From the NCBI GenBank assembly GCA_016784355.1, contig JADHUV010000001.1:29860-93859 (forward strand): 64,000 bases of DNA, given 5' to 3'. The first letter of the stretch is position 1; the number at the start of each line of letters is the position of its first letter. Below, piece after piece: positions 22,704 to 47,616 of this stretch. The position numbers and the translations under genes are program-made. Source of the DNA: Nitrospira sp. Its GTDB lineage: Bacteria; Nitrospirota; Thermodesulfovibrionia; UBA6902. The notes under the pieces were generated by a model. It was not told where the DNA came from. It ran no database searches and saw nothing but the letters and a program-made list of their open reading frames with translations.

Positions 22704-22729
22704 TATTCATCCTCTGATTTCTATGATAT

Positions 22730-23944: not shown

Positions 23945-23976
23945 AAAAAACCTCCCCTCAAATAAATGAGGAGAGG
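23945..23976 (-). terminator. Rho-independent terminator downstream of tRNA-Asn
   Basis: The minus-strand RNA is CCUCUCCUCA-UUUAUU-UGAGGGGAGG, a 10-bp stem with one G-U pair, followed by UUUUUU. Confidence 0.65.
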
Positions 23977-23987
23977 TATTATATGCA

Positions 23988-24063
23988 TGGCTCCCGGGGA
24001 GGGATTCGAACCCCCGACAGGGTGGTTAACAGCCACCTGCTCTGCCAGCTGAGCTACCCAGGA
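23988..24063 (-). tRNA. tRNA-Asn (anticodon GTT), CCA encoded
   Basis: I folded the reverse complement by hand: acceptor TCCTGGG/CCCGGGA, D-arm GCTC-AGCTGGC-AGAGC, anticodon stem GGTGG/CCACC with loop CTGTTAA, T-arm GGGGG-TTCGAAT-CCCTC, discriminator G, then CCA. The total is 76 nt. Confidence 0.9.
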
Positions 24064-29683: not shown

Positions 29684-30890
29684 CCGGCCCGGTTTTGTCT
29701 ATATCTTTAAGTTCGGATTTTCTTTTTGTTCTTTTCCAGGATTGGACCTTTCCCCGCAGTGCAAGGCTCAGGTATATAGGCAGTTTCGATAGGATATAAA
29801 AGGGTGCTGCCAGAAGATATATCCAGACTGAAAGTGGGGTTTTTCTTAAGATCTGTCCTGAAAGTACATAGAAAATCTCAACGGCACAGATAGCAATGAA
29901 AACTGGTGTCCATGCATGGTAGTGTAAAAGTGTCAGGGCAAAAAGGGCAGACTGTATTATCAGAAACAGGCTGAGAGGGGGGGTGATCAGCTCCATGAAT
30001 TCATCAAGGTATTTTATGCTGCCGCTGCCCGCAAATTTTTTAAAAACACACAATGCGTTTTTTTTAAATATCTCCAGCCTGCCGCCTTCCCATCTTTCTC
30101 TTTGAGTTTGCAGCTGCTTTTTCTCTATGGCCATCTCACTTACTACCAACGCATCCGGGTTGTAGTGTATCAGGATTCCGTCATGGAGAAGCTGCAGTGA
30201 AAACTCCAGATCTTCCACTATGGAGTGGGCCGGCCACCCATATTTTTTCAGGATCGGGGTTCTGAAGGCCATGCCGTTACCCTTAAGACCGGCCGTACCG
30301 CCTATAACATTACGACCGGCAGGTCGCAGGTGGTTAAATACATTGAAGGCAGCCGTTGAGATGGCTGTGCGCCAGTTGTCTTCCGGATTTGAGACACCGT
30401 TATACCCCTGAACTACCTGGACGTCCGGATGAGAAAGACTGCTTGCTACCTCGGATAGATAAGACTCAGACATTAAAGCATCAGCATCAATAAGGGCAAC
30501 TATCTGAAATGCCCCGTAAGCCTCAGTATATTGCCGTAGGAACCAGTCAAGGGCCTGCCCCTTTCCGCGATTAGCTGTATCATTGCGCTCAAAGACAGTT
30601 GCGCCAGCGGCTCTTGCAAATTCAGCAGTTCTGTCATCACAGTTGTCAGCGATTACCATGACTGAATAACGGTCTTCGGGGTAGCCGGATTTATAGACCT
30701 GCTGCAGGGTTTTCTCTATCTGCAGTTCTTCATTATGTGCGGGAATAAGAACTGCGATAGCTGGAGGAACAGGAAAAGTCGCGGTTTTTTTATGGAAGAA
30801 AAAGGCTGCAAGGGTTAGCGTGAAAAAATATAATGCTACTGAAACACAGTAAAGAGAAGAAATAATGAAAAGTATATCTATTATAATCAT
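29673..30890 (-). CDS. Membrane-embedded family-2 glycosyltransferase with a processive-type Q(R/Q)xRW motif
   Basis: 405 aa. Motifs: AVLIPAHNEE, VIADNCDD, LIDADA and QRERWEGG (QxxRW-like), with flanking TM helices at both ends. Confidence 0.8.
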   Translation of the reverse strand: MIIIDILFIISSLYCVSVALYFFTLTLAAFFFHKKTATFPVPPAIAVLIPAHNEELQIEKTLQQVYKSGYPEDRYSVMVIADNCDDRTAEFARAAGATVFERNDTANRGKGQALDWFLRQYTEAYGAFQIVALIDADALMSESYLSEVASSLSHPDVQVVQGYNGVSNPEDNWRTAISTAAFNVFNHLRPAGRNVIGGTAGLKGNGMAFRTPILKKYGWPAHSIVEDLEFSLQLLHDGILIHYNPDALVVSEMAIEKKQLQTQRERWEGGRLEIFKKNALCVFKKFAGSGSIKYLDEFMELITPPLSLFLIIQSALFALTLLHYHAWTPVFIAICAVEIFYVLSGQILRKTPLSVWIYLLAAPFYILSKLPIYLSLALRGKVQSWKRTKRKSELKDIDKTGPDES

Positions 30891-30894
30891 GATA

Positions 30895-32970: not shown

Positions 32971-34235
32971 TAAATATTCAAATGTTTTTTAAATAGATTG
33001 GCCATTAGCTCACAATTTTGTTTAAGGCTGTATTGCTGCATGACTTTCTGCCTGGCTGCTTTACCTAGTACCTTTCTTAATTCCGGGTCACTTAGAAGTG
33101 TTTGAAGTGCATCTGTAAGACCTGCTACATCCGAAGGAGATACCAGGACGCCGTCTTTCCAGTTATCGATCAGCTCAGGTATACCTGTTATGCGGGTGGA
33201 AACAGAGGGTATCGATTTAGACATGGCTTCCATAAGGACAACCGGCAGGCCTTCTGCAAAACTGGCAAGGACGAATATATTAGCCCGATCATAATGGCTG
33301 CGCACTGCCTCCTGTCCGAGTGCGCCGGTAAATATTACATTGCTGGATAGTCCCAGTTTTTTTGTGAGGGCCTCAAGCGAATCTCTGTCTTCACCTTCTC
33401 CGATAAAGGTCATATGGAATTTTGCACCTCTGTCTTTAAGTCTTCCACAGGCTTGAAGAAGAATATGCTGCCCCTTTGCCGGTACAAGCCTTCCGACGCA
33501 AAGTATTTCTGGTATATTATCTGCAATTTTATCTGATGGTGTGAATATCTCTGGATCGATGCCGCAACGCACGATATCCAGTTTACTCCACATCGCAGTC
33601 GGCAGCAGTCGCATCAATTGACTCTGGCAGTAATGACTTATACATCTGACAAAGAGGGCTTTTTTGGCTTTCTCCGCAAGCAGCAGCGGATCTACGTTAT
33701 AAAACACATCAGGGCCATGCACACTCATACTATAGGTTATATTGCCGTAGCTTGAGGCTATCATGGCTACAGTTGCAGCCGGGTTGGCAAAGTGAACATG
33801 TATATGGTTTATCGCATTCCGGAACATCCAATTTAGTAAAATGCCTGCCTCTGCAAAATATGCCAGTCCCTTTAAGACATTGCGCGGCCCACTACGGGAG
33901 AGTGTAATGGCCTCGCTGAGCATAGACAGATATTTGGCTGGGGATTTAATTAATATGTTTATATGGGCCAAAATAATTTCGATAATGGGGAGATCTTTAA
34001 TATACAGTGTCTCTTCAGTTTCATGTTTTTCCTCTGTGGTCATTTTACTGAGGAAGGCCGGCCTTTTAATTGAGGCGGTCATGACCTGAAGTCCCATGGC
34101 TCGCAAAGCCTGGATCTCTCTGAATATAAAGGTGTGAGAGATTGCAGGATATTCACTTGTCAGGTACGCGATACGTTGTTTCAGGCTTGTCATTTTTCTG
34201 TCCTGTGTTTTTACAGAATTCGCTGAAATTCCCAT
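32970..34235 (-). CDS. Family-4 (GT-B) glycosyltransferase, WcaL-like
   Basis: 421 aa with the C-terminal EX7E-type region FVLASFAEGLPVVLMEAMSKSIPSVSTRITGIPELI. Confidence 0.85.
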   Translation of the reverse strand: MGISANSVKTQDRKMTSLKQRIAYLTSEYPAISHTFIFREIQALRAMGLQVMTASIKRPAFLSKMTTEEKHETEETLYIKDLPIIEIILAHINILIKSPAKYLSMLSEAITLSRSGPRNVLKGLAYFAEAGILLNWMFRNAINHIHVHFANPAATVAMIASSYGNITYSMSVHGPDVFYNVDPLLLAEKAKKALFVRCISHYCQSQLMRLLPTAMWSKLDIVRCGIDPEIFTPSDKIADNIPEILCVGRLVPAKGQHILLQACGRLKDRGAKFHMTFIGEGEDRDSLEALTKKLGLSSNVIFTGALGQEAVRSHYDRANIFVLASFAEGLPVVLMEAMSKSIPSVSTRITGIPELIDNWKDGVLVSPSDVAGLTDALQTLLSDPELRKVLGKAARQKVMQQYSLKQNCELMANLFKKHLNI

Positions 34236-35557
34236 TCTGCGAGTCCGTAAATATTATTAGTTTTTGGAACGCTCGTCATCTTTAACCCCTGACTTTTCTC
34301 ATAACCTATAGTGGAAGCCATGGCCGCCAGCATGAATACAACTTGTTCAGACTGTCCTCCCATATAGACAGTTGCAAGCGTAATAAACCATGTGCCGGCA
34401 CACGCGGTAAGCATCCAGGCAAGTTGTCCTGACTTATGATCCGGAGGATGAGTCCATCCGTAGTATAGTAGTCTGGCGCTTAAAAAAATTGTCATGGCTA
34501 CAAAAAGATACATTGCAAGCACTCCGTGAAGCAGAGATATAAAGAGATACTGATTGTCCACAGACTTCTGCCCGCCCACGACGGGGATTCCCTGTCTGCC
34601 GTGGCCCAGCCAGAGCTTCTTTTTGATAACATCAATGTAGTTATCGAGGAGTTCCTTCCGGTATGCCGCACTTTCCTGCGTCTCTGTTTTGGCACTTAAA
34701 CGATCCACATGTATATAGTCCAGAAACATGGCCATGGCTGGTGGAATCAGCATGAAACAGATCAGGGCAATTACAATAATCGCATTTAAGCGTTTTTTCG
34801 ACCATCCTACAAAAAGAATTACCAGTCCTGCCAGAAAACCCAGAATCGGTCCTCTGGACATTGCCATGGCCATACCCGCGAAGTTCAGTATTATCACGGC
34901 TTTGCCAACCCAGGGATATTGCCAGGCCTTTTGTTTGTTGAGCCAGATGGCAAAGAGTGCAAAAAAAGACCACATAAGACCGGCAAGTATGGGGTGTCCA
35001 TAGGTAGCAGCAACGCGGATAAAACCCCATCTGCCCTGACGTGACCACTCACTTGCATCTGGCCATATATATTGCAGGGGATCTGTGATAACAATGGCGA
35101 GCCGGAATTCTACCGGAGAAAGCAGGGCCAGTATTGCACCAATTGCTACCATCACTTTAAGAATTTCGACCCTCAGATGCGGCTGCTGGAAGAAATGTTT
35201 AGTCAGCAGATAGGGAATAATTACCTGAACAAACCTGTCGATGATAATATTTATACCGTCTTTTGTTCCCATAGTTGTGAATTCACTGATGATGGAAATG
35301 ATCACATATGAAAAAACAAAGAGGTCTATAAAGGAATATTTGTACTCACGAATGCCGTGCTGCAGCCACCATAAAAAAAGCGGCAGCGCAGCGAAATGGA
35401 AAAAATTGAGATCCGGAAGTCCAGGGAGAGGGAAATAGTAATATGAGGGGACGGCCAGCAGCATAGGAAGCACAAGGTAGAGAAATACCTTTTCCGGAGA
35501 ACTGGAAGTAAGCATCAGGGTTGCTATAATTCCGGGTATGAGTGCCAGTGCGTGCAT
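34211..35557 (-). CDS. Wzy-type polymerase / O-antigen-ligase-family membrane protein
   Basis: 448 aa and polytopic, with the Wzy_C-like segment NFAGMAMAMSRGPILGFLAGLVILFV followed by a periplasmic loop. Confidence 0.75.
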   Translation of the reverse strand: MHALALIPGIIATLMLTSSSPEKVFLYLVLPMLLAVPSYYYFPLPGLPDLNFFHFAALPLFLWWLQHGIREYKYSFIDLFVFSYVIISIISEFTTMGTKDGINIIIDRFVQVIIPYLLTKHFFQQPHLRVEILKVMVAIGAILALLSPVEFRLAIVITDPLQYIWPDASEWSRQGRWGFIRVAATYGHPILAGLMWSFFALFAIWLNKQKAWQYPWVGKAVIILNFAGMAMAMSRGPILGFLAGLVILFVGWSKKRLNAIIVIALICFMLIPPAMAMFLDYIHVDRLSAKTETQESAAYRKELLDNYIDVIKKKLWLGHGRQGIPVVGGQKSVDNQYLFISLLHGVLAMYLFVAMTIFLSARLLYYGWTHPPDHKSGQLAWMLTACAGTWFITLATVYMGGQSEQVVFMLAAMASTIGYEKSQGLKMTSVPKTNNIYGLAEWEFQRIL

Positions 35558-35600
35558 CAGATTAGATCATCATTCGTTTTTTGTAAATATGTTAGTGTCA

Positions 35601-36611
35601 TTATATTATTGATTTTTTGAATGATGCAGCAAAGTTTAAAAGATCATCACTCATGAGTGTAATGGGAAAATTCTGTGCCATTTTCCTGCCTTCCTCTCGT
35701 AAGTCTTCCTTTAGCTCTTTATCAGTTAATATCGTATGTAGACAGTTTGAGAGTTCTTCGATATTACCGTCTTCGGCGATAAGTGCGGTCCGGCCCTGAT
35801 GCATGTGTACTTTTCCGCCTTGGCCTGTATAGCCGATGACGGCGCAACCGCAGGCCATTGCTTCTAGCGGCGGCAGTCCGAAGCCTTCCGGATACCCGAT
35901 AGCCATAAATATATCAGCCTGTTTATAAAATTCTATTATCTGTGATTGAGTGTATTTGTTAGCAAGCTCTATAAACTCGTTTTCTTTTCTAGTTTTCATA
36001 TCAAGTTTTTTGATTGCCAGACGAGCCTCATTCACATGTCTTCGGTTAAGATAAAGAACTGTCCCAGGTTTGCGTCTGGAGGCATCTGGCCTGAACAGGT
36101 TAAGATCAATCCCGTTGGTAATAACATGAGAAGGGAGTTCTGATTTTTCTTTCATAAATTCCCTTATGAACTCTGAACAGCATAAAATTCCGGTGAACCC
36201 AAAGTCCTCATATCTTCGGCCTGCTCCTGTACCGATGTCTACAAGTGACCATGCCTGTACAAAGGCAAATTTATGCCTGCAATTAAATTGAGATGCCGCA
36301 GAAGGCATGATCTCCGGGCATATCAGGACATCATCAGAACGAATTATTGATAAGGATTCCTGTGCGCTGAGGGGCTGGATATTATGGGAAAACCAGTCGA
36401 TAGTGAACTCGCCAAGGTGTATTACATGGGCTTCGTAACCGTTATCTCTTAGTATTTCACATTGCTGGTATATAACCTTTACTCCGCCGGACGGTAGCTG
36501 CTTATGCTTTCGGAAGACTCGCCTGTGCCAGTATGTCAGGTGAGATTCACCATCAAAACGTATGGTGGCTTCAGCCGGAATAATATAGAAAAAGCGGGGT
36601 TTGTAGGTCAT
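35601..36611 (-). CDS. GT-B fold glycosyltransferase (family 4/1)
   Basis: 336 aa with the motif IGYPEGFGLPPLEAMACGCAVIGY. Confidence 0.75.
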   Translation of the reverse strand: MTYKPRFFYIIPAEATIRFDGESHLTYWHRRVFRKHKQLPSGGVKVIYQQCEILRDNGYEAHVIHLGEFTIDWFSHNIQPLSAQESLSIIRSDDVLICPEIMPSAASQFNCRHKFAFVQAWSLVDIGTGAGRRYEDFGFTGILCCSEFIREFMKEKSELPSHVITNGIDLNLFRPDASRRKPGTVLYLNRRHVNEARLAIKKLDMKTRKENEFIELANKYTQSQIIEFYKQADIFMAIGYPEGFGLPPLEAMACGCAVIGYTGQGGKVHMHQGRTALIAEDGNIEELSNCLHTILTDKELKEDLREEGRKMAQNFPITLMSDDLLNFAASFKKSII

Positions 36612-36633: not shown

Positions 36634-38826
36634 TTAACCTATCTTTTTCAGGTAGGAAGGCAGCCTGTTTTCTATAGGCTTAATGAATTTTGCGATCAGC
36701 CGGTGAATACTGGACCTGTTTCTTGGTGCCCCCCAGTTAAAGACTGCCGATATGGCAGTAAGTCTCAATCTGCTCAATATCTGAACTGAGCGGCGGAGAT
36801 TGTTGTATAGGCATCGGTCACCCTGGATAATCAATACCCCGACATCTGCCTGTACCACGAGAAATTCTGTGAGATCGCTCTGAAGTACGGGTGCAGAATC
36901 AATAAGGATGAAATCATATTTTTTGCGTACCTCATTAAGCAACGCGAGAAGTAGCAGATTGTCCATTGCAGACTCTTCGAGTGAAGTTGGAATTCTGTCA
37001 GCAAGAAGGATATCTATACCTCTTTCGGAGTCATGGAAAATACACTCTTCAATGGATGCCGTTCCTTTGATAATATCTATCAAGCAGGGTGTTTTGGTAT
37101 GCCCCTCATACATATTGCAGATATCAGGGGAGACAAAGTTAGCCTCTAAAACCAGAACCCTGCCGCAGAATCTTTTGATTGCATAGGCCGTATTTATAAG
37201 TATACTAGTGTTTCCGCTTTTGTCATTGACACCGGTGAATACCGCTACCCTGGCATCGTGCTCTTCGCGTTCCCTGTTCAGCCTTACAGCAAGACTTCTG
37301 ACGGCTTTAGAGACAACATTCTGTGGATCATCTATTGTTACTCTTGAAAATTCTAATTTGCCGTCACCTGTGATGAGGTAATCAGATATAGGCCAACTAG
37401 GGGTAAAGCCAAGTGCGTTTGTCACGTCTTTAACAGAGGTGATACGGTCATCAAAAATGTCATATATGATTGTCAGTGCAGTTATGCTGAAAAAAGAAAA
37501 TATGAAGAGGATGCTGAGATTTTTTGTTTTGTTGTTGCCGCTTGCAAGCTCAGGGGTTCTTGCTAGACTCTCCAGAATTACTCTTCCAGGGGCACGGGAC
37601 TCCAGTTTAATTTCATGGATGCGGTCATCCAGTCGATCCAGAAGTGTTCTGCTCTGGCGCAGGGTCTCACCTATCTGGTGCCCCTGAAATATTAACTGAG
37701 CCGCCTCCGATGCCGACAGCTTTATTCTTTCCAGCTCATCAAGAATAGTTTTTTCTGCCTGCAAAGCGGCCTCATAATCAGCTTTGGCATTAATAACTCT
37801 CTGTCTTAGTTCAAATTTCCTTTTTGCATCAAGGATGTTAGTTGTCTCAATTCTCACCTCACTTTTCAGTTCCTGCAGATAGGCTTCCATCTCCTTTTTT
37901 CGCTTGTCCTGGAAACGTCTGTCAGGGTTATCCATTGTAGCCCCCTCAAGGGAAACTTCCATCTCCTGGATTTGCTTATGAGTCCAGGAGCGTGTTTCAT
38001 GAATCGAAGGGTCTCTGTAGACCAGCTCATTTACAACGGGTGCAAGGGATAGGAGGTTCATGTCTTTTGCTTCACTGACAGCTTTAATGTACATACTCTC
38101 TTTTTCGACTCTTTTTTCGTAAGCACCTGAGTGAGTTCTCTGAAGGTCCTGTAGTTGCTGTGTAAATATATTCTGTCCCTGATTTATAGTGCTTGTTCCG
38201 GTCTTCAATGTAATCTGCTGCAGTTGAGCTGTCATCTTCGCTATATCATTTTCAATCTTGTCTTTTTCCTGTCGGAGATAAGTTAACCTGCGGTTGTCTT
38301 TGCCTTCTTCCTCACCCCGAAGCTTTTCAAGGTAGGCATTCATGACACTGTTTATTATTTCAGCAAGGCCGTCAGGATCGTCCCCGTCCATATAAAGCTG
38401 AACAATATGGGTTTCCGGTATCTGAGAGACCTGCAGTCTTCCTGCAAGCATACTTGCGGCACGAGAAATTGAGATGCCTTCAGGGACAAACTGTTTTTTA
38501 AGTTCAGGATCCAGATTTTCCAGTGAACTTTCTATGATATCGTGTTCATATATAAGTTCGATCTGGGTTAAGACGTAATCATTATAATATGAAATAATGG
38601 ATGATTCTTCAGCCCTTGATATAAGTGTAGGCAGTACCGGCGCAATTCTCAGCTTCCCTACGGAGTCGTAAAATGGTTTGCTCATGTAAATACCAAGCGG
38701 GGCGGTCAGGGAAAATAGTATCATGCCGAAGATTAATATTTTCAGCCAGTGTGATACCAGGCTGCCTATAGGGTCGATAGGCTTCTGGGCCTTTGACTGT
38801 TCAGAAGTGTAGGGGTCTTGAGTCAT
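36634..38826 (-). CDS. Polysaccharide co-polymerase (Wzc/GumC/EpsG-like chain-length determinant) with a degenerate C-terminal P-loop domain
   Basis: 730 aa: TM1, a Wzz-like periplasmic coiled-coil region, TM2, then a MinD/BY-kinase-like domain. In that domain Walker A reads TGVNDKSGNTS (Asn where the GK[ST] lysine is expected) and Walker A-prime reads VLVLEANFVSP. Walker B, ILIDSAPV, is retained. There is no C-terminal Tyr cluster. Confidence 0.8.
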   Translation of the reverse strand: MTQDPYTSEQSKAQKPIDPIGSLVSHWLKILIFGMILFSLTAPLGIYMSKPFYDSVGKLRIAPVLPTLISRAEESSIISYYNDYVLTQIELIYEHDIIESSLENLDPELKKQFVPEGISISRAASMLAGRLQVSQIPETHIVQLYMDGDDPDGLAEIINSVMNAYLEKLRGEEEGKDNRRLTYLRQEKDKIENDIAKMTAQLQQITLKTGTSTINQGQNIFTQQLQDLQRTHSGAYEKRVEKESMYIKAVSEAKDMNLLSLAPVVNELVYRDPSIHETRSWTHKQIQEMEVSLEGATMDNPDRRFQDKRKKEMEAYLQELKSEVRIETTNILDAKRKFELRQRVINAKADYEAALQAEKTILDELERIKLSASEAAQLIFQGHQIGETLRQSRTLLDRLDDRIHEIKLESRAPGRVILESLARTPELASGNNKTKNLSILFIFSFFSITALTIIYDIFDDRITSVKDVTNALGFTPSWPISDYLITGDGKLEFSRVTIDDPQNVVSKAVRSLAVRLNREREEHDARVAVFTGVNDKSGNTSILINTAYAIKRFCGRVLVLEANFVSPDICNMYEGHTKTPCLIDIIKGTASIEECIFHDSERGIDILLADRIPTSLEESAMDNLLLLALLNEVRKKYDFILIDSAPVLQSDLTEFLVVQADVGVLIIQGDRCLYNNLRRSVQILSRLRLTAISAVFNWGAPRNRSSIHRLIAKFIKPIENRLPSYLKKIG

Positions 38827-38829: not shown

Positions 38830-39933
38830 TTAATTGCCGACAAAGCCCTTCTGCCCCCATGCCCTGTCTCTGAATTCCTGCATGACACCGAAGTTTTCAA
38901 GATTGCCTGTGCTCAGGGAAAGCACCTGCAAAAAGGGAGTGATATTTTTTAATGCAAAATTGAATTCGCCTATACTGGACGGCACTACATAGAGAATGTC
39001 ATTGTCCTGCAGGAGGTAATTGCTGCGCAGGTCGCCTTTTTCAATCATGTCTTTGAGGTTAATGGCATTTACAGTCCCCTGATCTCCGCTAAAACGTATA
39101 AGGTATGTTTCGTCCAGCCGTGCATCTTTTGTGGGGCCGCCTGCCATCATAAGGGCATCCATATAGGTCATGTTGCCCTTTAGTCTGATAGCCCCCGGCT
39201 GAGATACCTCGCCCATCACATAAGCAAGTTGTGCCTCGACTTCAGGTATGTAGATGACATCATTATTCTGTATTTTCGCATTTAACCCGAGGTTGCCGTT
39301 ATCGAGCAGTTCTTTTAAGTCGACCCAGATAATCAGGTCGCTGCCGCGGATTATCGCGCACTTGCTGGGGTATGCCTCATCCTCTATTGCCGCTCGTCCT
39401 CCCGCCAGCGCGATAGCCTCAAGGAGAGTTCCCTGACCCGTAAAGGTTACTATGCCCGGCTCTGTCACTCTGCCAAGCACGAAGGCCTTATTATTGTTAT
39501 ATACTGAGATAGCAAGAGATACTTCCGGGTTTTCATATAACTTGGAGAGCCTGGTTTGTATTTCCTCTGCTATGTCTTCTCTGGTACGGTTTGTCACTGT
39601 AAGATTCCCTATACGTGCAATGGTGATGATGCCGTCCGGGCCGACTGTTAAAGCTGCACTGGATATATCCGGCCGTTTCCATACATCAAGCTGCATAACA
39701 TCTCCCGGTCCCAGCAGGTATGTCAGCGGGATATTGTTTGATATACTGTCAATGGCACCTGAGGAGGCAAATTGTCTTTTTACTTTCTGCAGCTCTGTAT
39801 CAAAAACTTTTTTCACTTCGGTATCGCCGCCCGTATTTATCTGATCAGGGATAGGCTTCACGGTCGAGCATGATATCGTGGCGAGTGCCACAAGGCACAG
39901 TAATAGAGCTATGGATGAGAGTCTGGCCTTCAT
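38830..39933 (-). CDS. Alternative product: OPX lipoprotein initiated at the internal ATG of the GT2-OPX ORF
   Basis: The in-frame ATG at 39933 is preceded by AGGAG with 7-nt spacing (AGGAGAAATAATATG) and followed at once by a signal peptide plus lipobox-like ...ATISC. Confidence 0.5.
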   Translation of the reverse strand: MKARLSSIALLLCLVALATISCSTVKPIPDQINTGGDTEVKKVFDTELQKVKRQFASSGAIDSISNNIPLTYLLGPGDVMQLDVWKRPDISSAALTVGPDGIITIARIGNLTVTNRTREDIAEEIQTRLSKLYENPEVSLAISVYNNNKAFVLGRVTEPGIVTFTGQGTLLEAIALAGGRAAIEDEAYPSKCAIIRGSDLIIWVDLKELLDNGNLGLNAKIQNNDVIYIPEVEAQLAYVMGEVSQPGAIRLKGNMTYMDALMMAGGPTKDARLDETYLIRFSGDQGTVNAINLKDMIEKGDLRSNYLLQDNDILYVVPSSIGEFNFALKNITPFLQVLSLSTGNLENFGVMQEFRDRAWGQKGFVGN

Positions 39934-40941
39934 ATTATTTCTCCTGTTGCGCAGCGGTCTGCCTGTCAGTCGTCCTGCAAGGTAGCGGATAATTCCAAGA
40001 AACTGGGGGATAACGATAATAGAGCAATGCGCAGCATATATCCGGGCTTCCTGCCTGCCAAGCTGTTTCTCCCGTGCAATTTTGGTGACACTGAAGAGCA
40101 GCGGGTAAAATAGCAGCATTAAGGCAGGCAATAGTAAAATAATAAATTTGATGTCAATGCCCGCACCGGATAAGGCGGCAGCAGTCAGAAGCAAAGAGAC
40201 GCCGCCCCTTACGCATATCCGGCCGGTCTCATATAACCAGAAACCTCCTTTATTGCAGTCATGATGCATTGCAACTGCAGCAAAGCTATACCCTGTGCGA
40301 TATCCTCGTTTAATGTATTGTTTAATTTTTGTCATTGCCAAATCATGTTTTGCCATTGGCGCATCTATCTGAAGGATCTTCCAGTTTTGCATGCGGACTC
40401 TCCGGCTTAATTCGGGGTCTTCCCCGCCAACCATAACTTCGTCATAACCGCCGGTTTTCTTTAGGATTTGTCTTCTGATCAGTACGTTGCCGCCGAAAGA
40501 TTCGCATTCTCCCACCAGCGCATTCCACTCAAGATCTCCCAGCCAGTTATAAATGGATGCCTCGGGGTGCTTCTCTTTAAGTTCACCCTGCACCGCTCCG
40601 GTATCTTCTTTGAATTCGGGAATGGCTCTTTCAAACCAGTCCTGATCAATAGAGGTGTCAGAGTCTAAAAATTGAACAAACGGGGATGTCCCGGCCAGCC
40701 AGCCTTTGTTTCTACCGTGGCCTGGAGTAGGGTATTGGAGATTTGTCTGTATGACCGTGACCTGCGGGAATTGTTTTGCGATCTCGATGCTTTGATCTGA
40801 TGAGCCTCCGTCAACATAATATATAAATATATCTCCTCTGCTATAGCTGCTCTTTAGCACACTCTCAAGGCAATGCTCTAGAGTAGACGCGGTATTAAGG
40901 CCGATTATTACGCAATCAATGTCGAAGGCTTTATTGTTCAA
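38830..40941 (-). CDS. Single ORF encoding an N-terminal family-2 glycosyltransferase (with TM helices) and a C-terminal Wza-type outer-membrane polysaccharide export (OPX) protein
   Basis: 703 aa. The GT2 part has CVIIGLNTASTLEHCL, YYVDGGSSDQS and LDSDT. After residue 336 comes a lipoprotein-like signal, MKARLSSIALLLCLVALATISCS. Next is the Poly_export signature YLLGPGDVMQLDVWKRPDIS...VGPDGIITIARIG, followed by two SLBB-like units. Confidence 0.8.
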   Translation of the reverse strand: MNNKAFDIDCVIIGLNTASTLEHCLESVLKSSYSRGDIFIYYVDGGSSDQSIEIAKQFPQVTVIQTNLQYPTPGHGRNKGWLAGTSPFVQFLDSDTSIDQDWFERAIPEFKEDTGAVQGELKEKHPEASIYNWLGDLEWNALVGECESFGGNVLIRRQILKKTGGYDEVMVGGEDPELSRRVRMQNWKILQIDAPMAKHDLAMTKIKQYIKRGYRTGYSFAAVAMHHDCNKGGFWLYETGRICVRGGVSLLLTAAALSGAGIDIKFIILLLPALMLLFYPLLFSVTKIAREKQLGRQEARIYAAHCSIIVIPQFLGIIRYLAGRLTGRPLRNRRNNMKARLSSIALLLCLVALATISCSTVKPIPDQINTGGDTEVKKVFDTELQKVKRQFASSGAIDSISNNIPLTYLLGPGDVMQLDVWKRPDISSAALTVGPDGIITIARIGNLTVTNRTREDIAEEIQTRLSKLYENPEVSLAISVYNNNKAFVLGRVTEPGIVTFTGQGTLLEAIALAGGRAAIEDEAYPSKCAIIRGSDLIIWVDLKELLDNGNLGLNAKIQNNDVIYIPEVEAQLAYVMGEVSQPGAIRLKGNMTYMDALMMAGGPTKDARLDETYLIRFSGDQGTVNAINLKDMIEKGDLRSNYLLQDNDILYVVPSSIGEFNFALKNITPFLQVLSLSTGNLENFGVMQEFRDRAWGQKGFVGN

Positions 40942-40992: not shown

Positions 40993-41997
40993 TTACCAGG
41001 GAGTGCAGGGACTTATGCTGCCTGCACGGGTTTCTTTTAGAGCAGCGATAGCATGTTTGATTATGTTGAAAGATTCTTTACACTTCATGGTACCGCTGCT
41101 GCCCCTGAGAAGGTTGACCATATAACGCAGTCCATGCCATCCAATCTCCACTGAAGCATTTGCGAGTACGGACAACAGACCATGGTTTTTCCTGAAATAC
41201 AGGTATTCGCTTCTCATTCTGAACTTTAGAACCTGTGCACCTGATTCATCGAAATCAAGATCTTTACGTACTTTGCTGCTTGCGCCTCCGACATGAATGA
41301 CCTCGGCATCAGGAATGAAGTAAATTTTCCAGCCCTTACGTTTCAGGTTCAGACACAGGTCTGTTTCTTCATAATAGATATAGAATCGTTCATCGAAAAG
41401 GCCATGGTCTTTCAGTGCGCTTGCCCTATATACGGTGAAGGTTCCGGGGACCCAGTCAACTTCCATAACCGAGTTGTGATCAAAATAATTCATATCACTT
41501 TTGCTGAAGATTTTTGATGAGGCATATCTGCTGCTGAGACCGGAAATTATAAATAGTTTGGCCAAACTTCCAGGATATTTTCGAGCTGAAGGATCAAGTG
41601 TACCTTGCAGGTTTATGAGTCTTCCTCCGCACAGGGCGCAGTCAGTATGAGTTTCCATAAAGGTAATGGCATTATCGATAGCACCGGCCTTAAGATAGGC
41701 ATCGGGATTTAATAGTATGATATAGCTGCCGCCTGCAAGTTTGTAGGCCTGGTTGTTGGCAGCTGCAAAACCCATGTTTGTTTTATTTTCTATAAGGATT
41801 ATATCCTTGTAATTCTCCCTGATCATCTCTACTGAATTATCATATGAATTATTGTCTACGATAAATACCTCCATCTCATGCGCAACCGGATGTGCGTATA
41901 GTTCGGAGAGGCACTTATGCAGTATCTCGCTGGTATTGAAGCTTACGATAATGATGGATATTTTCATTTTACAGTAGGCAGTTACTCTTTGTTCCAT
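40993..41997 (-). CDS. Family-2 glycosyltransferase (rhamnosyltransferase-like)
   Basis: 334 aa with ISIIIVSFNTSEILHKCLSEL, FIVDNNSYDNS and LNPDA. Its start overlaps the REC-PP2C gene by 16 nt. Confidence 0.85.
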   Translation of the reverse strand: MEQRVTAYCKMKISIIIVSFNTSEILHKCLSELYAHPVAHEMEVFIVDNNSYDNSVEMIRENYKDIILIENKTNMGFAAANNQAYKLAGGSYIILLNPDAYLKAGAIDNAITFMETHTDCALCGGRLINLQGTLDPSARKYPGSLAKLFIISGLSSRYASSKIFSKSDMNYFDHNSVMEVDWVPGTFTVYRASALKDHGLFDERFYIYYEETDLCLNLKRKGWKIYFIPDAEVIHVGGASSKVRKDLDFDESGAQVLKFRMRSEYLYFRKNHGLLSVLANASVEIGWHGLRYMVNLLRGSSGTMKCKESFNIIKHAIAALKETRAGSISPCTPW

Positions 41998-43160
41998 CTG
42001 AGGCCGATTATAGAGACATCATCGCTGAACTCATCAGTGCCCCGAAAGTCATAGAGGTCACTTATTAATGCATCGAATGAGGCGTTCAGTCCGTCATTGC
42101 TGCTGCCGGCGAGGACATCTTTTACTCTGTTGAGTCCATATTCTGCATCTGCCTCTTCAGAAGGGCTGCATTCGTTTATGCCGTCTGAGAATACGATAAG
42201 AGAGTCTCCGGATGTAAGCTGATAGGTCTGTTCCTCATCACTGTTAAAAGGTATGCCCAGTCCAATAGGCGGTCCTCCGCCGTCAATGTAGATAAAGGAA
42301 CCGTCACTGCTTAGTACCAGAGGAAGGTTATGGCCGGCCCTGCACATCGTCAGCAGACCTGTCTTTGTATTGAGGATCGCATACAGCATGGTGTAATAGC
42401 TGCCGTATTCTTCAATCAGCAGGCTTTGATTTAATTCCATGGCCACATCCAGAGGAGAGTTTATCTTATAAAACGGCTTTGAGCCAGTAGGGGTTTTTAT
42501 CAGGCCGTACGGACTGAGATCGTGACTCATTCTCTGATGGATAGAGACGCTGAAAAGCGCAGAAAGTACCCCGTGTCCCATGACATCCACATGGTAAAGT
42601 CCAATGTGTTCTTCATCAAGGCGGAAGATATTGTATATATCTCCGGAAACATAGCTGCTGGGAATAAATCTGGCAGCGAAGTCCACATTTTCTATTTCAG
42701 GGAACTTTGCAGGGAGGAAACTTTCCTGCAGTTTTCTCGCAGCCTCAAGGTCTTTTCTTATGATCTCATTTTTTTCCGTCAGGTTGTGTTCAAGGTCGAG
42801 AATCCTGACACCCGCCTTGATCCTGGTCCGGAGTTCTCCTTCGTGAAATGGCTTGGTCAGGTAGTCGTCAGCACCCGCTTCCATGCCTGTTACTATGTCT
42901 TCCTTGTTGGTGCGGGAGGTCATTAAAATTATATACACATAGCCGGATATACTGGTATTACGAATATTGCGGCATAGAGTTGCCCCATCCATTTCTTTCA
43001 TTATCCAGTCGGTAATAACAAACCTGATATCATTTTGGCTGATGATATCAAGTGCTTTCAGACCGTCTTCAGCGGTAAGCACCTCATGCCCCTGGTTTTC
43101 AATGCGTCGTTTGATCAGGCGGATAAAATCCGGATCATCATCTACGACTAGGATCTTCAT
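41982..43160 (-). CDS. Response-regulator receiver fused to a PP2C/SpoIIE-type serine phosphatase (RsbU-like)
   Basis: 392 aa. The receiver is canonical (ILVVDDD, FVITDWIMKEMDG, LTKPF). The PP2C motifs are SGDIYNIF, VDVMGHGV, FSDGI and SDDVSII. Confidence 0.9.
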   Translation of the reverse strand: MKILVVDDDPDFIRLIKRRIENQGHEVLTAEDGLKALDIISQNDIRFVITDWIMKEMDGATLCRNIRNTSISGYVYIILMTSRTNKEDIVTGMEAGADDYLTKPFHEGELRTRIKAGVRILDLEHNLTEKNEIIRKDLEAARKLQESFLPAKFPEIENVDFAARFIPSSYVSGDIYNIFRLDEEHIGLYHVDVMGHGVLSALFSVSIHQRMSHDLSPYGLIKTPTGSKPFYKINSPLDVAMELNQSLLIEEYGSYYTMLYAILNTKTGLLTMCRAGHNLPLVLSSDGSFIYIDGGGPPIGLGIPFNSDEEQTYQLTSGDSLIVFSDGINECSPSEEADAEYGLNRVKDVLAGSSNDGLNASFDALISDLYDFRGTDEFSDDVSIIGLRWNKE

Positions 43161-43612
43161 TTTTTTACGGCCTCGCTATTATCAGGACGGATGAAAAATC
43201 TGGTCATTGAAAGTATGTTCCATCCATCAATGACGCGATACTCTACCTCATCCATTTGAGTTTTTATAAGATATATTCCATAGCCTCCTACGGTATGTTT
43301 ATCAAAATCAGGGATGGGAACCTGACTAATATCAAAGCCCTTGCCATGATCCTTTACTACTGTCACAAGTCTGTCTTTGTATATCTGGAAAAGGAGTATT
43401 ATCTTCCCTTTGTCTTTGAGTCCTGAATGCTTAATCACATTGGTACATGCTTCACTTACTGCAAGTTCAATAATGTTAATAAACTCATCATCTATGGAAT
43501 TAAGCCCGATTGAATGACAGACCTCTCTGCACAGGTTGCCGGCCAGTTGCAGATATTGCAGTCTGCTTGCAAATTCAAGTGTTATTTCATCAGTTGGTTT
43601 AGAAGTGTTCAT
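43157..43612 (-). CDS. RsbW/SpoIIAB-type anti-sigma-like serine kinase (GHKL ATPase)
   Basis: 151 aa with N-box ELAVSEACTNVIKHS, G1 DHGKGF and G2 GGYGIYLI. It overlaps the phosphatase gene by 4 nt. Confidence 0.85.
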   Translation of the reverse strand: MNTSKPTDEITLEFASRLQYLQLAGNLCREVCHSIGLNSIDDEFINIIELAVSEACTNVIKHSGLKDKGKIILLFQIYKDRLVTVVKDHGKGFDISQVPIPDFDKHTVGGYGIYLIKTQMDEVEYRVIDGWNILSMTRFFIRPDNSEAVKK

Positions 43613-43614
43613 GT

Positions 43615-43965
43615 TTAATCTAAAGTTTGTTCCGTATAGCTTTCCGCTGCAGCGGTGCTGCTGTCGAAAATCTCAAACAGCCGATGCATTCTGGTAAGTT
43701 CAAAAATGCTTCTTACCTGCGCTTGAAGGGATGCTATCTTAATGTCACCTTCGACCTTGTTAACTGTCCTGAGAGAGGCCACCAGGACTCCGAGACCGGA
43801 ACTGTCAATGAAGTCAACTGCCTCCATATCAAACACCAGCAATGGCCTGCCATTTTTAACCAGTAAACCGACTTTATCCTTTACTGCTTTGGCGGAAGAG
43901 GCATCAAGTCTGCCTTTAAATTTTAAGATCACTATAGTGTTGAGGGTCTCTTCTGATATTGTCAT
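43615..43965 (-). CDS. STAS-domain anti-anti-sigma-type protein (RsbV/SpoIIAA/SypA-like)
   Basis: 116 aa containing FDMEAVDFIDSSGLGVLV with the conserved phosphorylatable Ser context DSSGLG. Confidence 0.9.
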   Translation of the reverse strand: MTISEETLNTIVILKFKGRLDASSAKAVKDKVGLLVKNGRPLLVFDMEAVDFIDSSGLGVLVASLRTVNKVEGDIKIASLQAQVRSIFELTRMHRLFEIFDSSTAAAESYTEQTLD

Positions 43966-44010
43966 TTGTCTTCCCGCTCCTTGATTAGCTTTGTAATCAG
44001 CATAGTATTT

Positions 44011-47000
44011 TTATCCTGATACCTCTATCTGTACAGAACTAATATAATTGCCGAGATTTAAATTAAGTTTTTTTATCTCTTCGGCATCATTGTTTTCAGC
44101 CGCAAGTTCTATTGCTGCCCCGATAGTGCCGATAGCGTAAAACCCATAACTGCCGCTCGTGCCCTTCATGCTGTGGCCAATCCTTTTTATCTCAGAGAAA
44201 TTAGCTTCTCTTAGAAGGTTGTCTATGCCCTCTACATCTCGTTGCCTGTTTTCAATGAATTCCGGCACAAGGTCTTCTATATCGGCATCAATGTATACCA
44301 TCTCAACAGCATTGTCCGGAGAGCTTGACTGAAGGTTTTCCTGCGGCAGGTATTTATTAATCAAATTAGCCAGAATTTCTCTGTCAAGGGGCTTTGCGAG
44401 GTAATCGCTGCATCCTGCCGAGATACACTTGCCGGCTTCTTTTGAGCCCTGGTGTGCGGTCATTGCAATAATGGGTGTGTCTTTATAATTTTCTATAGTT
44501 CTGATTTTTTTTGCGGTGGAGTAGCCATTTAGCACAGGCATCTCCATATCCATCAGGATCAGCGAGACCGTATTATTTATAACCGCCTTTAATGCCTCCT
44601 TGCCATTGCCTGCAAACAGCAGGTTGTAGTTTCCCTGACTTTGCAGATAGCGTTCTACCAGGAATCTGTTGTCGCTATTGTCATCCACAATGAGTATTAC
44701 GCTCCTCTTATCTGTCCATTTTCCTACGGCCTGCAGCAGGGTTTGTTTTCTGATCGGCTTGGTCAGGTAATCGTCCATACCGTGAGCAATACATTGTTCC
44801 CTGCAGCCCTTGATAGCATTTGCCGTGAGGGCCAATATGGGACATCGAGCGCTGCCTTTTTGCGCTTCAATCTCTCTGATAGTTTTCGTGGCCTCAAAGC
44901 CGTCCATTACAGGCATATTGATATCCATAAGAATTAAATCATAACAGACTTTCTGTATTGCCTCTACCGCCAGGGCGCCATTTTCAGCAATTTCAACATT
45001 ATAGCCGGCCTTTTCCAGAAGCCTGCCGGCATATTTTTGATTGTCAGGACTATCCTCAACTAAAAGGATAGTTTTCGAGTGAACCAGTTGTTTAGGGGCG
45101 GTATTGTTGTCTTTTTCAGCATGAAGGCTTTTTTCAGGATAGATGCGAAAGGCCTTGATGATGGCGCTCAGGAGGCCTGGCTGAGTTACGGGTTTCATTA
45201 CCAGGCCGGTTATTCCCAATTCTCTTTTTAACTCTGCATCAGCCTTACCCAAAGACGAGAGGATTATGATTCTTGTCTCATCATAGGTTTTCTCACGTCT
45301 GATTTTCCTTATCAGTTCAATAGTATTTACCCCGGATAACTGATAATCAATAATTAAAAGATTGTATTGTATGGGGGTGGATTGAATAAGATTAAAGGCC
45401 TCCTCGCTGCTGGTAGTTGTCTCTACATTTACCGCCCATGCGCTCATTGCTTTTTCAACGATCTGGCTGGCCGTATTTTTACTTTCCATGACAAGTACCC
45501 GGAGATTTTCAAGTTGCGGGTAGGAGGTTTTTCTTTTTCTGGCCCGTCTGTCTTCCTGGTACCTCATGTTAAGGTCGAAACTGAAGGTTGAGCCTTTGCC
45601 TGCCTCACTCTTAAGACCGAATGTTCCGCCCATCAGTTCTACAAGGGATTTGGATATATTCAGGCCTAGACCGGTGCCTTTATACTTTCTACTGGTAGAG
45701 GATTCTGCCTGGGTGAATTTTTCGAATATTTTTGACTGATGTTCACTGGCTATGCCAATGCCTGTGTCAGATACGCTGAAGTTAAGAGCAACTGTGCTGG
45801 TTTTGTCTTCATTGCAAGAGGGGCTCAGCTCAACATTTATAGTGACTTCACCAGATTCCGTAAATTTAATGCCGTTATCCATGAGGTTGATAAGTATCTG
45901 TCTGAGCCTGTCCGGATCCCCAATAATAACTGCGGGTACATCAGGAGCTACGTAATGGCTTATTTCCAGATCTTTCCCTTTTGCTCTTACGCTAAGTGCA
46001 ATAGTAACACCTTCTACAAGATCCTCAACATCAAATGGAATTTCTTCCAACTCTGTATTACCTGACTCAATTCTGGCTATATCAAGGATATCATTTATTA
46101 AAAAAAGCAGCGAGCGCGAGTTAGATTCAACGATTCTGAGGTAATCTCTCTGCTCTTCAGATAGTTCGGTATCCAGAGTCAGTTCTGTCATGCCGATAAT
46201 GGCATTCATAGGTGTTCGTATCTCATGACTCATTTGAGCCAGAAAGGCACTCTTTGTTTCCGAGGCCTCTTCAGCCGTCTTTCTGGCCTTCTGTAGTTCC
46301 TCATCGTTTTTGATAAGGACTGAGATATCATGAAATGAGACGACTGCGCCATTTACCGTGTCTTCTTCCATTATGGGTCTGGCAATACAGGAGACAGGAA
46401 AAAATGAGCCATCACTACGCAGAAAGGTATCTTTTATGTTTTCATAAGGTTGTCCGGTGTGCAGTACCTCACAGAACTGGTGTTCTTTAAGATCCGTATC
46501 AGCTGTAATATTTTTTTCAGGTTTTTGCAGGAACTCCTCTATGTTCCGGTTTATTATCTCATTTTCAGGCCATCCGAGCAGCTTGGCACCTTCGGGGTTT
46601 ATAAAGGTGACCCTGCCATCACGGTCTAGACCTAATAATCCTTCGCCCAGACTGCTAAGCGTTACAGCAAGGCGGTCTTTTTCTTTTTTGATCTTTTCCT
46701 TCAGAGCGGCCTCGGCCCTTCCTGTTGTCAGGTGTATAAGCAATAGACCAGTAAGAAGAAATGCCTCAAGTACATATAGGATAACCTGTGAGATCATTAC
46801 GATATTATGAAGGGTATCCCGTCGGATATTTACATTGGCATAAACCTCCAGAGAGCCGATGAACTTCCCCTTATGTACAAGCGGTATATAGCTCTGTACT
46901 GTTTCTGTCTTGGATATCGTACCATTGACTGCTCCGGTTTCTCCCCAGACCAGTCTTGCTTTAGGCTTTTCTCTCAGACTGTTTTCTATTATGTAATTTT

Positions 47001-47334
47001 CCTCCCGATGGAGTCCTATATCAGCTGGATTTGAGGAATATAAAACTAGTCCATCACGGGAAAGTACCTGCAGTTTATTTATCTCATAGTCCTTTCTCAT
47101 TAGGCGTTCTCTTTGTATAAACTCAGGGGTAAAGAGATCGGCATTAAGCACAGACAGGTCATTGAAAAACAGGTCTGTGAGATGCTTTCCAAAATGCATA
47201 GTGTCCTTGGTTACGTCCTTGACCACGATATCATTAAATAACGGATATGCCATTTTCTTGGTTATGATTGGAAAGAGTACGGAGGTTGCTACCAACAGCA
47301 GCAGTACGCTTATTATGAATTTATTTCTGAACAT
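44011..47334 (-). CDS. Hybrid sensor histidine kinase with extracytoplasmic sensor, PAS, HisKA, HATPase, three receiver domains and a C-terminal HPt
   Basis: 1107 aa. Motifs: H-box MSHEIRTPMNAIIGM, INLMDNGIKFT, DTGIGI and GTGLGLNIS. Receiver 1 is atypical (VMESKN ... LIIDYQL). Receivers 2 and 3 are canonical (LLVEDSPDN..LILMDINMPVMDG; LIVDDNSDN..LILMDMEMPVLNG). The HPt reads HSMKGTSGSYG. Confidence 0.9.
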   Translation of the reverse strand: MFRNKFIISVLLLLVATSVLFPIITKKMAYPLFNDIVVKDVTKDTMHFGKHLTDLFFNDLSVLNADLFTPEFIQRERLMRKDYEINKLQVLSRDGLVLYSSNPADIGLHREENYIIENSLREKPKARLVWGETGAVNGTISKTETVQSYIPLVHKGKFIGSLEVYANVNIRRDTLHNIVMISQVILYVLEAFLLTGLLLIHLTTGRAEAALKEKIKKEKDRLAVTLSSLGEGLLGLDRDGRVTFINPEGAKLLGWPENEIINRNIEEFLQKPEKNITADTDLKEHQFCEVLHTGQPYENIKDTFLRSDGSFFPVSCIARPIMEEDTVNGAVVSFHDISVLIKNDEELQKARKTAEEASETKSAFLAQMSHEIRTPMNAIIGMTELTLDTELSEEQRDYLRIVESNSRSLLFLINDILDIARIESGNTELEEIPFDVEDLVEGVTIALSVRAKGKDLEISHYVAPDVPAVIIGDPDRLRQILINLMDNGIKFTESGEVTINVELSPSCNEDKTSTVALNFSVSDTGIGIASEHQSKIFEKFTQAESSTSRKYKGTGLGLNISKSLVELMGGTFGLKSEAGKGSTFSFDLNMRYQEDRRARKRKTSYPQLENLRVLVMESKNTASQIVEKAMSAWAVNVETTTSSEEAFNLIQSTPIQYNLLIIDYQLSGVNTIELIRKIRREKTYDETRIIILSSLGKADAELKRELGITGLVMKPVTQPGLLSAIIKAFRIYPEKSLHAEKDNNTAPKQLVHSKTILLVEDSPDNQKYAGRLLEKAGYNVEIAENGALAVEAIQKVCYDLILMDINMPVMDGFEATKTIREIEAQKGSARCPILALTANAIKGCREQCIAHGMDDYLTKPIRKQTLLQAVGKWTDKRSVILIVDDNSDNRFLVERYLQSQGNYNLLFAGNGKEALKAVINNTVSLILMDMEMPVLNGYSTAKKIRTIENYKDTPIIAMTAHQGSKEAGKCISAGCSDYLAKPLDREILANLINKYLPQENLQSSSPDNAVEMVYIDADIEDLVPEFIENRQRDVEGIDNLLREANFSEIKRIGHSMKGTSGSYGFYAIGTIGAAIELAAENNDAEEIKKLNLNLGNYISSVQIEVSG

Positions 47335-47616
47335 TATTCTGTCTAAGGTCTCTGGCAGTAATTATTTTATTAAAGGAAATCATATAATCAGGCATGGCTC
47401 CGCCCGCTCAATTACAGTTGCTAAGGCTCATTAATACGCAGTCAAATGATCTATTACTATATATATCAACAAGTGACAGCTTAATATTCGGCATGCAGAC
47501 GTGTTTACTTTAAGGCGATTGGTAGTTATCCATCGGGAGAGATTGCTTTGCCTAAAGAGTATTTTAATCGGGCATTCATTTGATAGAGTGATTCTGAATA
47601 TGTAGAATAAACCAAT

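Follow-up and report, generated by a model that had tools for sequence, protein, structure and literature searches.

A Wzx/Wzy polysaccharide cluster probably headed by a phosphorelay-gated, partner-switching-like module, with a tandem-STAS GT26 glycosyltransferase among its candidate targets

The principle of controlling polysaccharide production through a switch made of a STAS protein, a serine kinase and a receiver-bearing phosphatase is already known from two systems, SypE/SypA of Vibrio fischeri and HenR/Alr3423/All4160 of Anabaena. In V. fischeri, the receiver domain of SypE decides between its kinase and its phosphatase activity (PMC10120452), SypE and SypA act below transcription (PMC10120452, PMC4517449), and the syp regulators are fed by the hybrid kinases RscS and SypF (PMC10120452, PMC4517449, PMC3610818). 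The target of SypA was still given as "unknown" in a 2024 review (PMC11112999), and our literature searches found no identification of it after 2023. In Anabaena, the receiver-SpoIIE protein HenR and the kinase Alr3423 control Ser74 of All4160, a STAS-Bac_transf fusion, and a non-phosphorylatable All4160 bypasses the loss of HenR (PMC13555669, June 2026); STAS-sugar-transferase fusions were reported there as rare outside cyanobacteria, and the strategy as lineage-specific (PMC13555669). Here we describe a related locus, found in a stretch of 64,000 nucleotides (nt) of a Nitrospira sp. assembly (GCA_016784355.1, contig JADHUV010000001.1, positions 29,860-93,859 of the forward strand; hereafter "the window"), in which genes for a hybrid histidine kinase, a single-domain STAS protein, an RsbW-like kinase and a receiver-PP2C (REC-PP2C) phosphatase precede a string of polysaccharide genes, one of them encoding a GT26 glycosyltransferase with two STAS domains. 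Contigs identical to the window are present in other public assemblies, including GCA_014382155.1, and the named relatives of the window proteins belong to Desulfobacterales/Thermodesulfobacteriota.

The locus can probably be read as an exopolysaccharide (EPS) cluster of the Wzx/Wzy type, headed by a phosphorelay-gated and sigma-factor-less partner-switching-like module that controls the enzymes of polysaccharide assembly. It shares with the syp locus of V. fischeri the presence of STAS, serine kinase, receiver and PP2C functions in a Wzx/Wzy locus together with a hybrid kinase carrying a histidine phosphotransfer (HPt) domain, again with no sigma factor, and the fused domain order of SypE is found in close relatives of the window proteins. 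The resemblance to SypE/SypA logic that the original prediction had pointed out is thus supported by the architecture of the orthologues and by the content of the locus. On the other hand, SypE is one tripartite protein whereas the window has two genes with a 4-nt overlap; syp has the sigma-54 regulator SypG and sigma-54 promoters, while the window string has neither inside the locus; and the window string includes a glycosyltransferase with two STAS domains. To our knowledge, no syp-encoded enzyme carries STAS domains. The likeness to the V. fischeri and Anabaena proteins rests on domain architecture and on published descriptions.

With the heterocyst-polysaccharide module of Anabaena the window has in common a REC-SpoIIE protein, a separate RsbW-type kinase and a polysaccharide-assembly enzyme that carries a serine-bearing STAS domain; in Anabaena the switch acts on enzyme activity, with no sigma factor, and the same is proposed for the window. 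However, the Anabaena module consists of three dispersed genes, its sensor kinase is unknown, and its enzyme is a Bac_transf protein with a single N-terminal STAS domain (PMC13555669), whereas in the window all parts and a hybrid kinase share one string, the enzyme is a GT26 protein that ends in two STAS domains, and a free STAS protein is encoded in addition. The claim that the package as a whole was undescribed had therefore been overstated, since direct control of a STAS-fused enzyme by a REC-SpoIIE protein and an RsbW-type kinase was shown in Anabaena (PMC13555669). What is new here is the GT26 enzyme family, the tandem C-terminal STAS domains, the presence of free and fused STAS together, the sensor kinase in cis, and the lineage.

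Two further systems are more distant. In Pseudomonas aeruginosa, an HPt phosphorelay (HptB-HsbR-HsbA) likewise leads to a receiver-PP2C/kinase, on which the state of a STAS protein depends, with biofilm control through an enzyme (PMC5085249, PMC6482189), the STAS protein HsbA binding the diguanylate cyclase HsbD (PMC5085249). HsbR combines phosphatase and kinase in one protein, however, and its outputs are FlgM, HsbD and RpoS availability; unlike the window module, it lies outside any polysaccharide cluster and works without an enzyme-fused STAS. The Bacillus partner switches RsbU/RsbV/RsbW and SpoIIE/SpoIIAA/SpoIIAB share the three protein families and the DSSGLG phospho-serine loop with the window, but neither in the window nor in the related loci examined is the module joined by a sigma factor gene.

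The module is physically tied to the polysaccharide genes, as the spacing and the Pfam content bear out (Table 1). A gap of 45 nt, with an AGGAG upstream of the STAS start, separates the hybrid kinase gene from the STAS gene; 2 nt lie between the STAS and the RsbW-like genes; and the latter overlaps the REC-PP2C gene by 4 nt (ATGA). The open reading frame (ORF) table reproduced exactly the coordinates, the gene order, the two gaps and this overlap as they had been predicted. The predicted overlap of 16 nt between the REC-PP2C gene and the first glycosyltransferase gene (GT2) stands if the latter starts at 41997; it does not if the alternative ATG at 41967 is used, which opens MKISIIIVSFN, a typical GT2 N-terminus, and leaves a 14-nt gap. 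Gene callers disagree on this gene on the identical public contigs (334 aa vs 324 aa). As had also been predicted, the closely spaced genes continue on the same strand down to 24202, with a largest intergenic gap of 96 nt (28091-28186). Strong minus-strand terminator-like hairpins are located only outside the string (48218-48189 and 23977-23950), and none was found between the module and the first glycosyltransferase gene; we infer a single transcript of about 23 kb.

Following the module, the biosynthetic order is GT2, GT2-Wza, Wzc-like, GT4, Wzy, GT4, an unknown protein, GT2, Wzx, Bac_transf, GT26-STAS-STAS and finally a fusion of NTP_transferase, left-handed beta-helix (LbH) and Bac_transf domains. 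According to Pfam, this comprises a complete Wzx/Wzy set (Bac_transf, Polysacc_synt_3, Wzy_C, Poly_export/SLBB and AAA_31). A six-frame hidden Markov model (HMM) scan of the window identified exactly three STAS domains, i.e., the free one and the GT26-borne pair, and a single copy each of an RsbW-type kinase and a PP2C phosphatase, in agreement with the prediction that the only other STAS domains were those fused to GT26.

The four regulatory proteins have the features expected of their families, and Pfam agrees with the predicted order of a HisKA-HATPase-REC-REC-REC-HPt hybrid kinase followed by STAS, RsbW-type and REC-PP2C proteins. The hybrid kinase consists of two transmembrane helices (1-19 and 175-193), a periplasmic loop, PAS, HisKA and HATPase_c domains, three REC stretches and an Hpt domain (1022-1087) with an HSMKG motif. 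The free STAS protein scores above the cut-off of TIGR00377 and has SpoIIAA as its best PDB match; its loop reads FIDSSGLG, in which Ser55, aligned with Ser58 of SpoIIAA, is the predicted phospho-site, and the same loop is present in its orthologues at four other loci (L003, L090, L091 and L129). The best PDB match of the RsbW-like kinase is RsbW (6m36, E=2.4e-14), and its N-box (EACTNVIKHS), G1 (DHGKGF) and G2 (GGYGIYL) boxes are intact. In the REC-PP2C protein, the metal motifs DVMGHG, FSDG and DDVS are intact, as are the acidic pocket, the conserved Lys and the predicted phospho-acceptor Asp51 of the receiver; its best NCBIfam match is RssB, far under the cut-off of that family. No equivalog-level NCBIfam name was obtained for any of the core proteins.

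Three of the closest homologues of REC-PP2C (P0003, P0005 and P0024; 52-62% identity) are single fused RsbW-REC-PP2C proteins. When concatenated, the window kinase and REC-PP2C sequences align end to end with these fused homologues, the split falling at the domain junction, and the RsbW-like kinase is 45-48% identical to the N-terminal domain of the fused SypE-type homologues. Judged from their sequences, the RsbW-like kinase and REC-PP2C represent the SypE architecture divided over two genes. The separation of kinase and phosphatase had been proposed to set this module apart from SypE, a contrast that dissolves and becomes trivial because the close homologues are single fused proteins with which the window pair is collinear.

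The catalytic part of the GT26 enzyme matches Glyco_tran_WecG with 217.8 bits (cut-off 27.4) and TIGR00696 with 152 bits (cut-off 69), and phospho-sites are predicted at Ser341 in its first STAS domain (STAS1) and at Ser460 in the second (STAS2). The protein belongs to a large, Desulfobacterales-centred family: the 120 homologues listed (47-56% identity, about 520 aa), which include Desulfobacter vibrioformis and a Desulfococcaceae isolate, all share the WecG+STAS architecture. Within this close family the phospho-site serine is kept in 118 of the 120 STAS1 and in 111 of the 120 STAS2 domains, and the preceding aspartate is invariant in both. The free STAS protein is 37% identical to STAS1, with an identical FIDSSGLG octapeptide, and 26% identical to STAS2. 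An AlphaFold (AF2) model computed from 77 sequences (predicted local distance difference test score 81; predicted template-modelling score 0.71) predicts a TagA-like core, a long helix (241-276), a floppy linker and two STAS folds. In Foldseek comparisons, the modelled catalytic domain matched TagA/TarA with a template-modelling score (TM-score) of 0.91 and 35% identity, and the modelled STAS domains superposed on SpoIIAA taken from the complex with its kinase (TM-score 0.83). Relative to TagA, TarA and WecG, the window enzyme thus shares the catalytic fold but would add the helix, the flexible linker and the two STAS domains; we know of no characterised GT26 enzyme with STAS domains. A tandem-STAS query against 1.84 billion representatives retrieved 114 clusters at E ≤ 1e-10; among the best 150 matches, 92 also had a GT26 domain and 88 had two STAS domains. 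Literature searches found no paper on a WecG/TagA-STAS fusion.

In the mechanism that we propose, the membrane hybrid kinase would sense an envelope or periplasmic signal, and phosphate would be relayed by its receivers and its HPt domain to Asp51 in the receiver-PP2C protein. Phosphorylation of Asp51 would set the balance between the phosphatase and a constitutive serine kinase, and this balance would determine the state of Ser55 in the free STAS protein and, most likely, also that of Ser341 and Ser460 in the GT26-fused domains. By analogy with All4160 of Anabaena and SypA of V. fischeri, the unphosphorylated STAS would permit polymer synthesis and the phosphorylated form would block it. The control point would be the first membrane-committed steps of repeat-unit assembly and not transcription, namely the steps of the priming enzyme (Bac_transf), of GT26 as second-sugar transferase and of the NTP_transferase-LbH-Bac_transf protein encoded next to it. 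The GT26 gene directly follows the priming transferase gene, as expected of a second-sugar transferase. The free STAS protein could compete for the kinase or act in trans as an activator.

A more specific version, which we consider speculative and rather unlikely to hold in full, puts an enzyme in the place of the sigma factor: the kinase would hold or phosphorylate the GT26 tandem STAS, and the dephosphorylated free STAS would compete and release the enzyme. If true, the RsbW-like kinase would be an "anti-glycosyltransferase", a SypA-type free STAS would act at the first lipid-linked steps, either by competing for the kinase or through STAS-STAS exchange, and the question of what SypA acts on would receive a testable answer.

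The original prediction had named the GT26 enzyme as a candidate target encoded in cis. This is credible given the conserved serines and the four other fusion loci in which an RsbW-like kinase and a free STAS gene are found. These four come from a sample of seven other GT26-STAS-STAS loci, each viewed over ±10 kb; the order of the genes is permuted, and REC-PP2C is present in three of the four. In D. vibrioformis (L090) the genes are those for a histidine kinase, HPt, REC-PP2C, RsbW, STAS, Bac_transf, GT26-STAS and NTP-LbH-Bac_transf proteins, together with the remaining pathway. A locus in a 5.6-Mb genome reads GT2, REC-PP2C, STAS, RsbW, ManC, Bac_transf, GT26-STAS; contig ctg954065 carries an exosortase gene, STAS, a fused SypE-like gene and Wzy, followed further on by Bac_transf and GT26-STAS; and L129 has GT26-STAS, RsbW and STAS, with no Bac_transf nearby. 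The count of four is a lower bound, because the module of the window itself lies 15 kb from its GT26 gene and would escape a 10-kb view. As tblastn with the window proteins missed the diverged RsbW in L090, profile HMMs built from the loci were used instead. The conservation of synteny that had been suggested as a check was therefore found for the gene set, which recurs near GT26-STAS-STAS, and not for the gene order, which is shuffled; the linkage is not obligatory either.

A metagenome search with GT26-STAS-STAS returned mostly plain GT26 genes, which were taken as a negative control, and no free STAS, PP2C or RsbW-type gene was found at these control loci. Among the soil metagenome loci (L092-L099 and L103) we also observed a separate, distant class of GT26 enzymes with a single C-terminal STAS domain whose loop reads GPNT or GADA and has no serine. 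Near these single-STAS genes no free STAS or PP2C gene was found, and the only RsbW-profile match, about 5 kb upstream in L099, is a candidate only. Wza and Wzc genes are located 2-3 kb downstream of them. As controls, both groups speak for the association of the module with GT26-STAS-STAS.

The genes next to GT26-STAS recur as well. Bac_transf directly precedes GT26-STAS in L089, L090, L091, L130 and L131, and an NTP_transferase-LbH-Bac_transf fusion directly follows GT26-STAS in the same five loci (as two genes in L089). The fusion also follows Bac_transf in the Nitrosomonadales locus L010, where GT26-STAS is absent. L010 therefore indicates that the link between the module and polysaccharide clusters crosses phyla, with the priming enzyme pair as its steadiest neighbours. 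Overall, at least five independent loci, belonging to two phyla, have the module within an EPS cluster, and its linkage with EPS genes is recurrent, not obligatory. In a search of genome contigs with REC-PP2C, most matches covered the receiver only; full-length matches came from about 11 of 80 loci, and the search contributed L009 and L010 and no close relatives.

The window and its relatives suggest that control of assembly enzymes through fused STAS domains is not confined to cyanobacteria, but is widespread in the sulfate-reducing Desulfobacterales and reaches a Nitrosomonadales genome. All parts of the proposed circuit, from sensor kinase, HPt domain, receiver-phosphatase, kinase and free STAS to a STAS-bearing enzyme, are encoded in one operon-like string, including a candidate sensor kinase, the counterpart of which is still missing for Anabaena. 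The locus also joins the literature on SypE/SypA with that on STAS-fused glycosyltransferases, and points to priming and second-sugar transfer as the likely point of control, a lead on the target of SypA. As a named member of the family, D. vibrioformis offers an accessible organism for tests. Cultured strains of this species are expected to exist.

Several points weigh against control of the assembly enzymes by the module. Phosphotransfer, serine phosphorylation and co-transcription are deduced from sequence. In an alignment of 93 diverse representatives of the wider GT26-STAS family, the D-S/T phospho-site is left in 34 of the STAS1 and 57 of the STAS2 domains. This loss of the phospho-site implies that the fused STAS must also have a phosphorylation-independent role; the fusion is therefore old and diverse, with phosphorylatability a trait of some subfamilies, that of the window included. 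L010 has REC-PP2C, Bac_transf, NTP-LbH-Bac_transf, STAS and RsbW and, further along, Wzx and GT4, i.e., a full module with no GT26-STAS gene, so that the free STAS may have another target. GT26-STAS-STAS genes with no kinase or phosphatase gene in the 10-kb view were found in L130, L131 and L100/L101. Close REC-PP2C orthologues also occur beside glycan genes outside EPS clusters (GT4 and glycogen phosphorylase; GT2, PGM and epimerase; GT1 and alpha-amylase). Lastly, the view covers 64 kb of the genome, and a sigma-factor partner encoded at an unlinked position is possible.

The most serious rival, in view of L010, L130/L131 and the serine-poor distant subfamilies, is that the free STAS protein is, as in V. 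fischeri, the sole substrate and output of the switch, acting on a partner other than GT26 such as Bac_transf, NTP_transferase-LbH-Bac_transf or Wzc/Wza, while the GT26 tandem STAS serves oligomerisation or docking to the membrane or to a partner, or answers to other kinases. The enzyme regulated in Anabaena, a Bac_transf protein (PMC13555669), would fit such an arrangement. We nevertheless hold it to be improbable: within the close family, conservation of both serines is strong, the phospho-loop of STAS1 is identical to that of the free STAS, the kinase and free STAS genes of L129 stand immediately after GT26-STAS where no Bac_transf is nearby, and the single-STAS class without the serine lacks the module (the match in L099 aside).

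A canonical partner switch is a further alternative. The RsbW-like protein would then be the anti-sigma factor of a sigma factor encoded elsewhere, with the free STAS as its antagonist; any control of EPS would be transcriptional and the STAS domains of GT26 would be unrelated. The best matches of the kinase and of the STAS protein are indeed RsbW, SpoIIAB and SpoIIAA, and the receiver-PP2C proteins RssB and HsbR of Pseudomonas feed RpoS availability (PMC6482189), RssB being the sub-threshold best match of the phosphatase noted above; the limited extent of the view leaves room for such a partner. However, no sigma factor (no Sigma70 domain) was found in any scanned ORF of the window, including the truncated ORFs at its ends, and no sigma factor gene was found in the operon in L001, L003, L010, L089-L091, L129, L132 and L133; the one extracytoplasmic function (ECF) sigma factor seen in the related loci lies 8 kb off, in a separate gene pair. 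The prediction of a module without a local sigma factor thus holds for the window and for every related locus examined. Moreover, the orthologues are SypE-fused and the genetics of SypE put the STAS protein downstream of the kinase (PMC10120452), and the module recurs beside glycan enzymes in permuted orders. Taken together, these observations make a canonical switch decidedly unlikely. Least probable of all, and hardly to be expected, is an incidental juxtaposition, in which a general carbohydrate or stress regulator upstream of the cluster is transcribed separately and has no control over the polysaccharide: some of its close orthologues do lie beside glycogen phosphorylase, alpha-amylase or PGM genes and not in full EPS clusters, and one REC-PP2C orthologue has only a hybrid kinase and no STAS or RsbW-type kinase gene nearby, but the neighbours are glycan-related in nearly every case, the gaps in the window are 45, 2, -4 and -16 (or +14) nt with no intervening terminator, and the recurrence inside EPS clusters of two phyla is independent.

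The absence of any DNA-binding output from the window, which had also been claimed, proved wrong: a sigma-54 activator with Sigma54_activat, HTH_8 and a weak REC domain is encoded at 57685-59103 (plus strand), about 10 kb from the string with unrelated genes between, and is convergent with a hybrid HK-REC-HPt gene at 59160-61574 (minus strand). This activator was considered as an equivalent of SypG that would drive the string. A search for -24/-12 elements (TGGCACN5TTGCW, up to two mismatches) gave 27 matches in the window where 34 were expected by chance, and none in the region upstream of the kinase gene (47335-47616). Because no sigma-54 promoter signal above chance was found, a role of the activator in serving the EPS string is unsupported and this candidate was dropped. 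A REC-PAS-HisKA gene begins at 62593 (plus strand) and runs off the end of the window; for these neighbouring genes, too, no link to the EPS string was found.

Table 1. Features of the EPS string and its borders in the window (all on the minus strand), listed in the direction of transcription.
Feature	Coordinates	Strand	Evidence
Presumed promoter of the string, AT-rich divergent intergenic region	47335..47616	-	282 nt separating the kinase gene from the plus-strand gene of a hexapeptide acetyltransferase
Hybrid histidine kinase	44011..47334	-	Pfam, transmembrane prediction
Single-domain STAS protein, SypA/RsbV-like	43615..43965	-	Pfam STAS 71.5 bits
GHKL serine kinase, RsbW/SpoIIAB type	43157..43612	-	HATPase_c_2 77.7 bits
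Receiver-PP2C serine phosphatase, SpoIIE type	41982..43160	-	Response_reg 96.7 bits, SpoIIE 107.3 bits
GT2, first biosynthetic gene	40993..41997	-	Pfam; other start at 41967
GT2 in-frame with Wza-type exporter (Poly_export + SLBB)	38830..40941	-	Pfam
Wzc-like co-polymerase/ATPase	36634..38826	-	AAA_31; weak NCBIfam tyrosine autokinase matches
GT4, Wzy polymerase, GT4, 691-aa protein (weak GH5 match), GT2, Wzx flippase	28187..36611	-	Pfam
Small Bac_transf priming phosphoglycosyl transferase	27260..28090	-	Bac_transf 231.7 bits; TIGR03025 297.6 bits, barely over cut-off
GT26 (WecG/TagA/CpsF) with two C-terminal STAS domains	25701..27260	-	Pfam; family conservation; AF2 model
NTP_transferase-LbH-(C-terminal half of Bac_transf) fusion, last in the string	24202..25704	-	Pfam
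tRNA-Asn, then strong terminator-like hairpin, presumed end of the unit	23950..24063	-	tRNA and hairpin prediction

Some features of the string and its surroundings deserve mention in their own right. The 703-aa ORF at 38830-40941 has a GT2 part with two transmembrane-like helices at 250-287 and, after Met337 within the ORF, a sequence resembling a lipoprotein signal peptide, MKARLSSIALLLCLVALATISC, so that translation of Wza may begin inside the ORF; D. vibrioformis has GT2 and Wza as neighbouring but distinct genes. The fusion protein at 24202-25704 combines an NTP_transferase domain, a left-handed beta-helix and the C-terminal half of Bac_transf with one transmembrane helix, and may be a pseudo-enzyme version of the priming transferase or its partner. 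The stretch that directly follows the tRNA-Asn and the terminator, at 19407-23812 (minus strand), encodes a CheB methylesterase and a PAS hybrid kinase with REC and HPt domains, a second phosphorelay beside the cluster.

A PEP-CTERM protein is encoded at 6148-6795 (plus strand), and in L003 an exosortase EpsH gene (3476-4843) lies immediately upstream of the STAS/SypE-like pair, which hints at a link of such clusters to exosortase systems. Two large repeat proteins are encoded at 8360-19149 (minus strand): one of 1595 aa, with RHS and TPR repeats and a C39 peptidase domain, and one of 1015 aa, with thrombospondin-type-3/PKD repeats. Several small ORFs without a family match lie between them, and this may be a toxin or adhesin region. 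Finally, the gene at 51503-53470 (minus strand) codes for a three-part fusion of GNAT acetyltransferase, RimK-like N-terminal domain and ATP-grasp ligase, and is adjoined by a four-subunit pyruvate:ferredoxin oxidoreductase operon (48248-51283).

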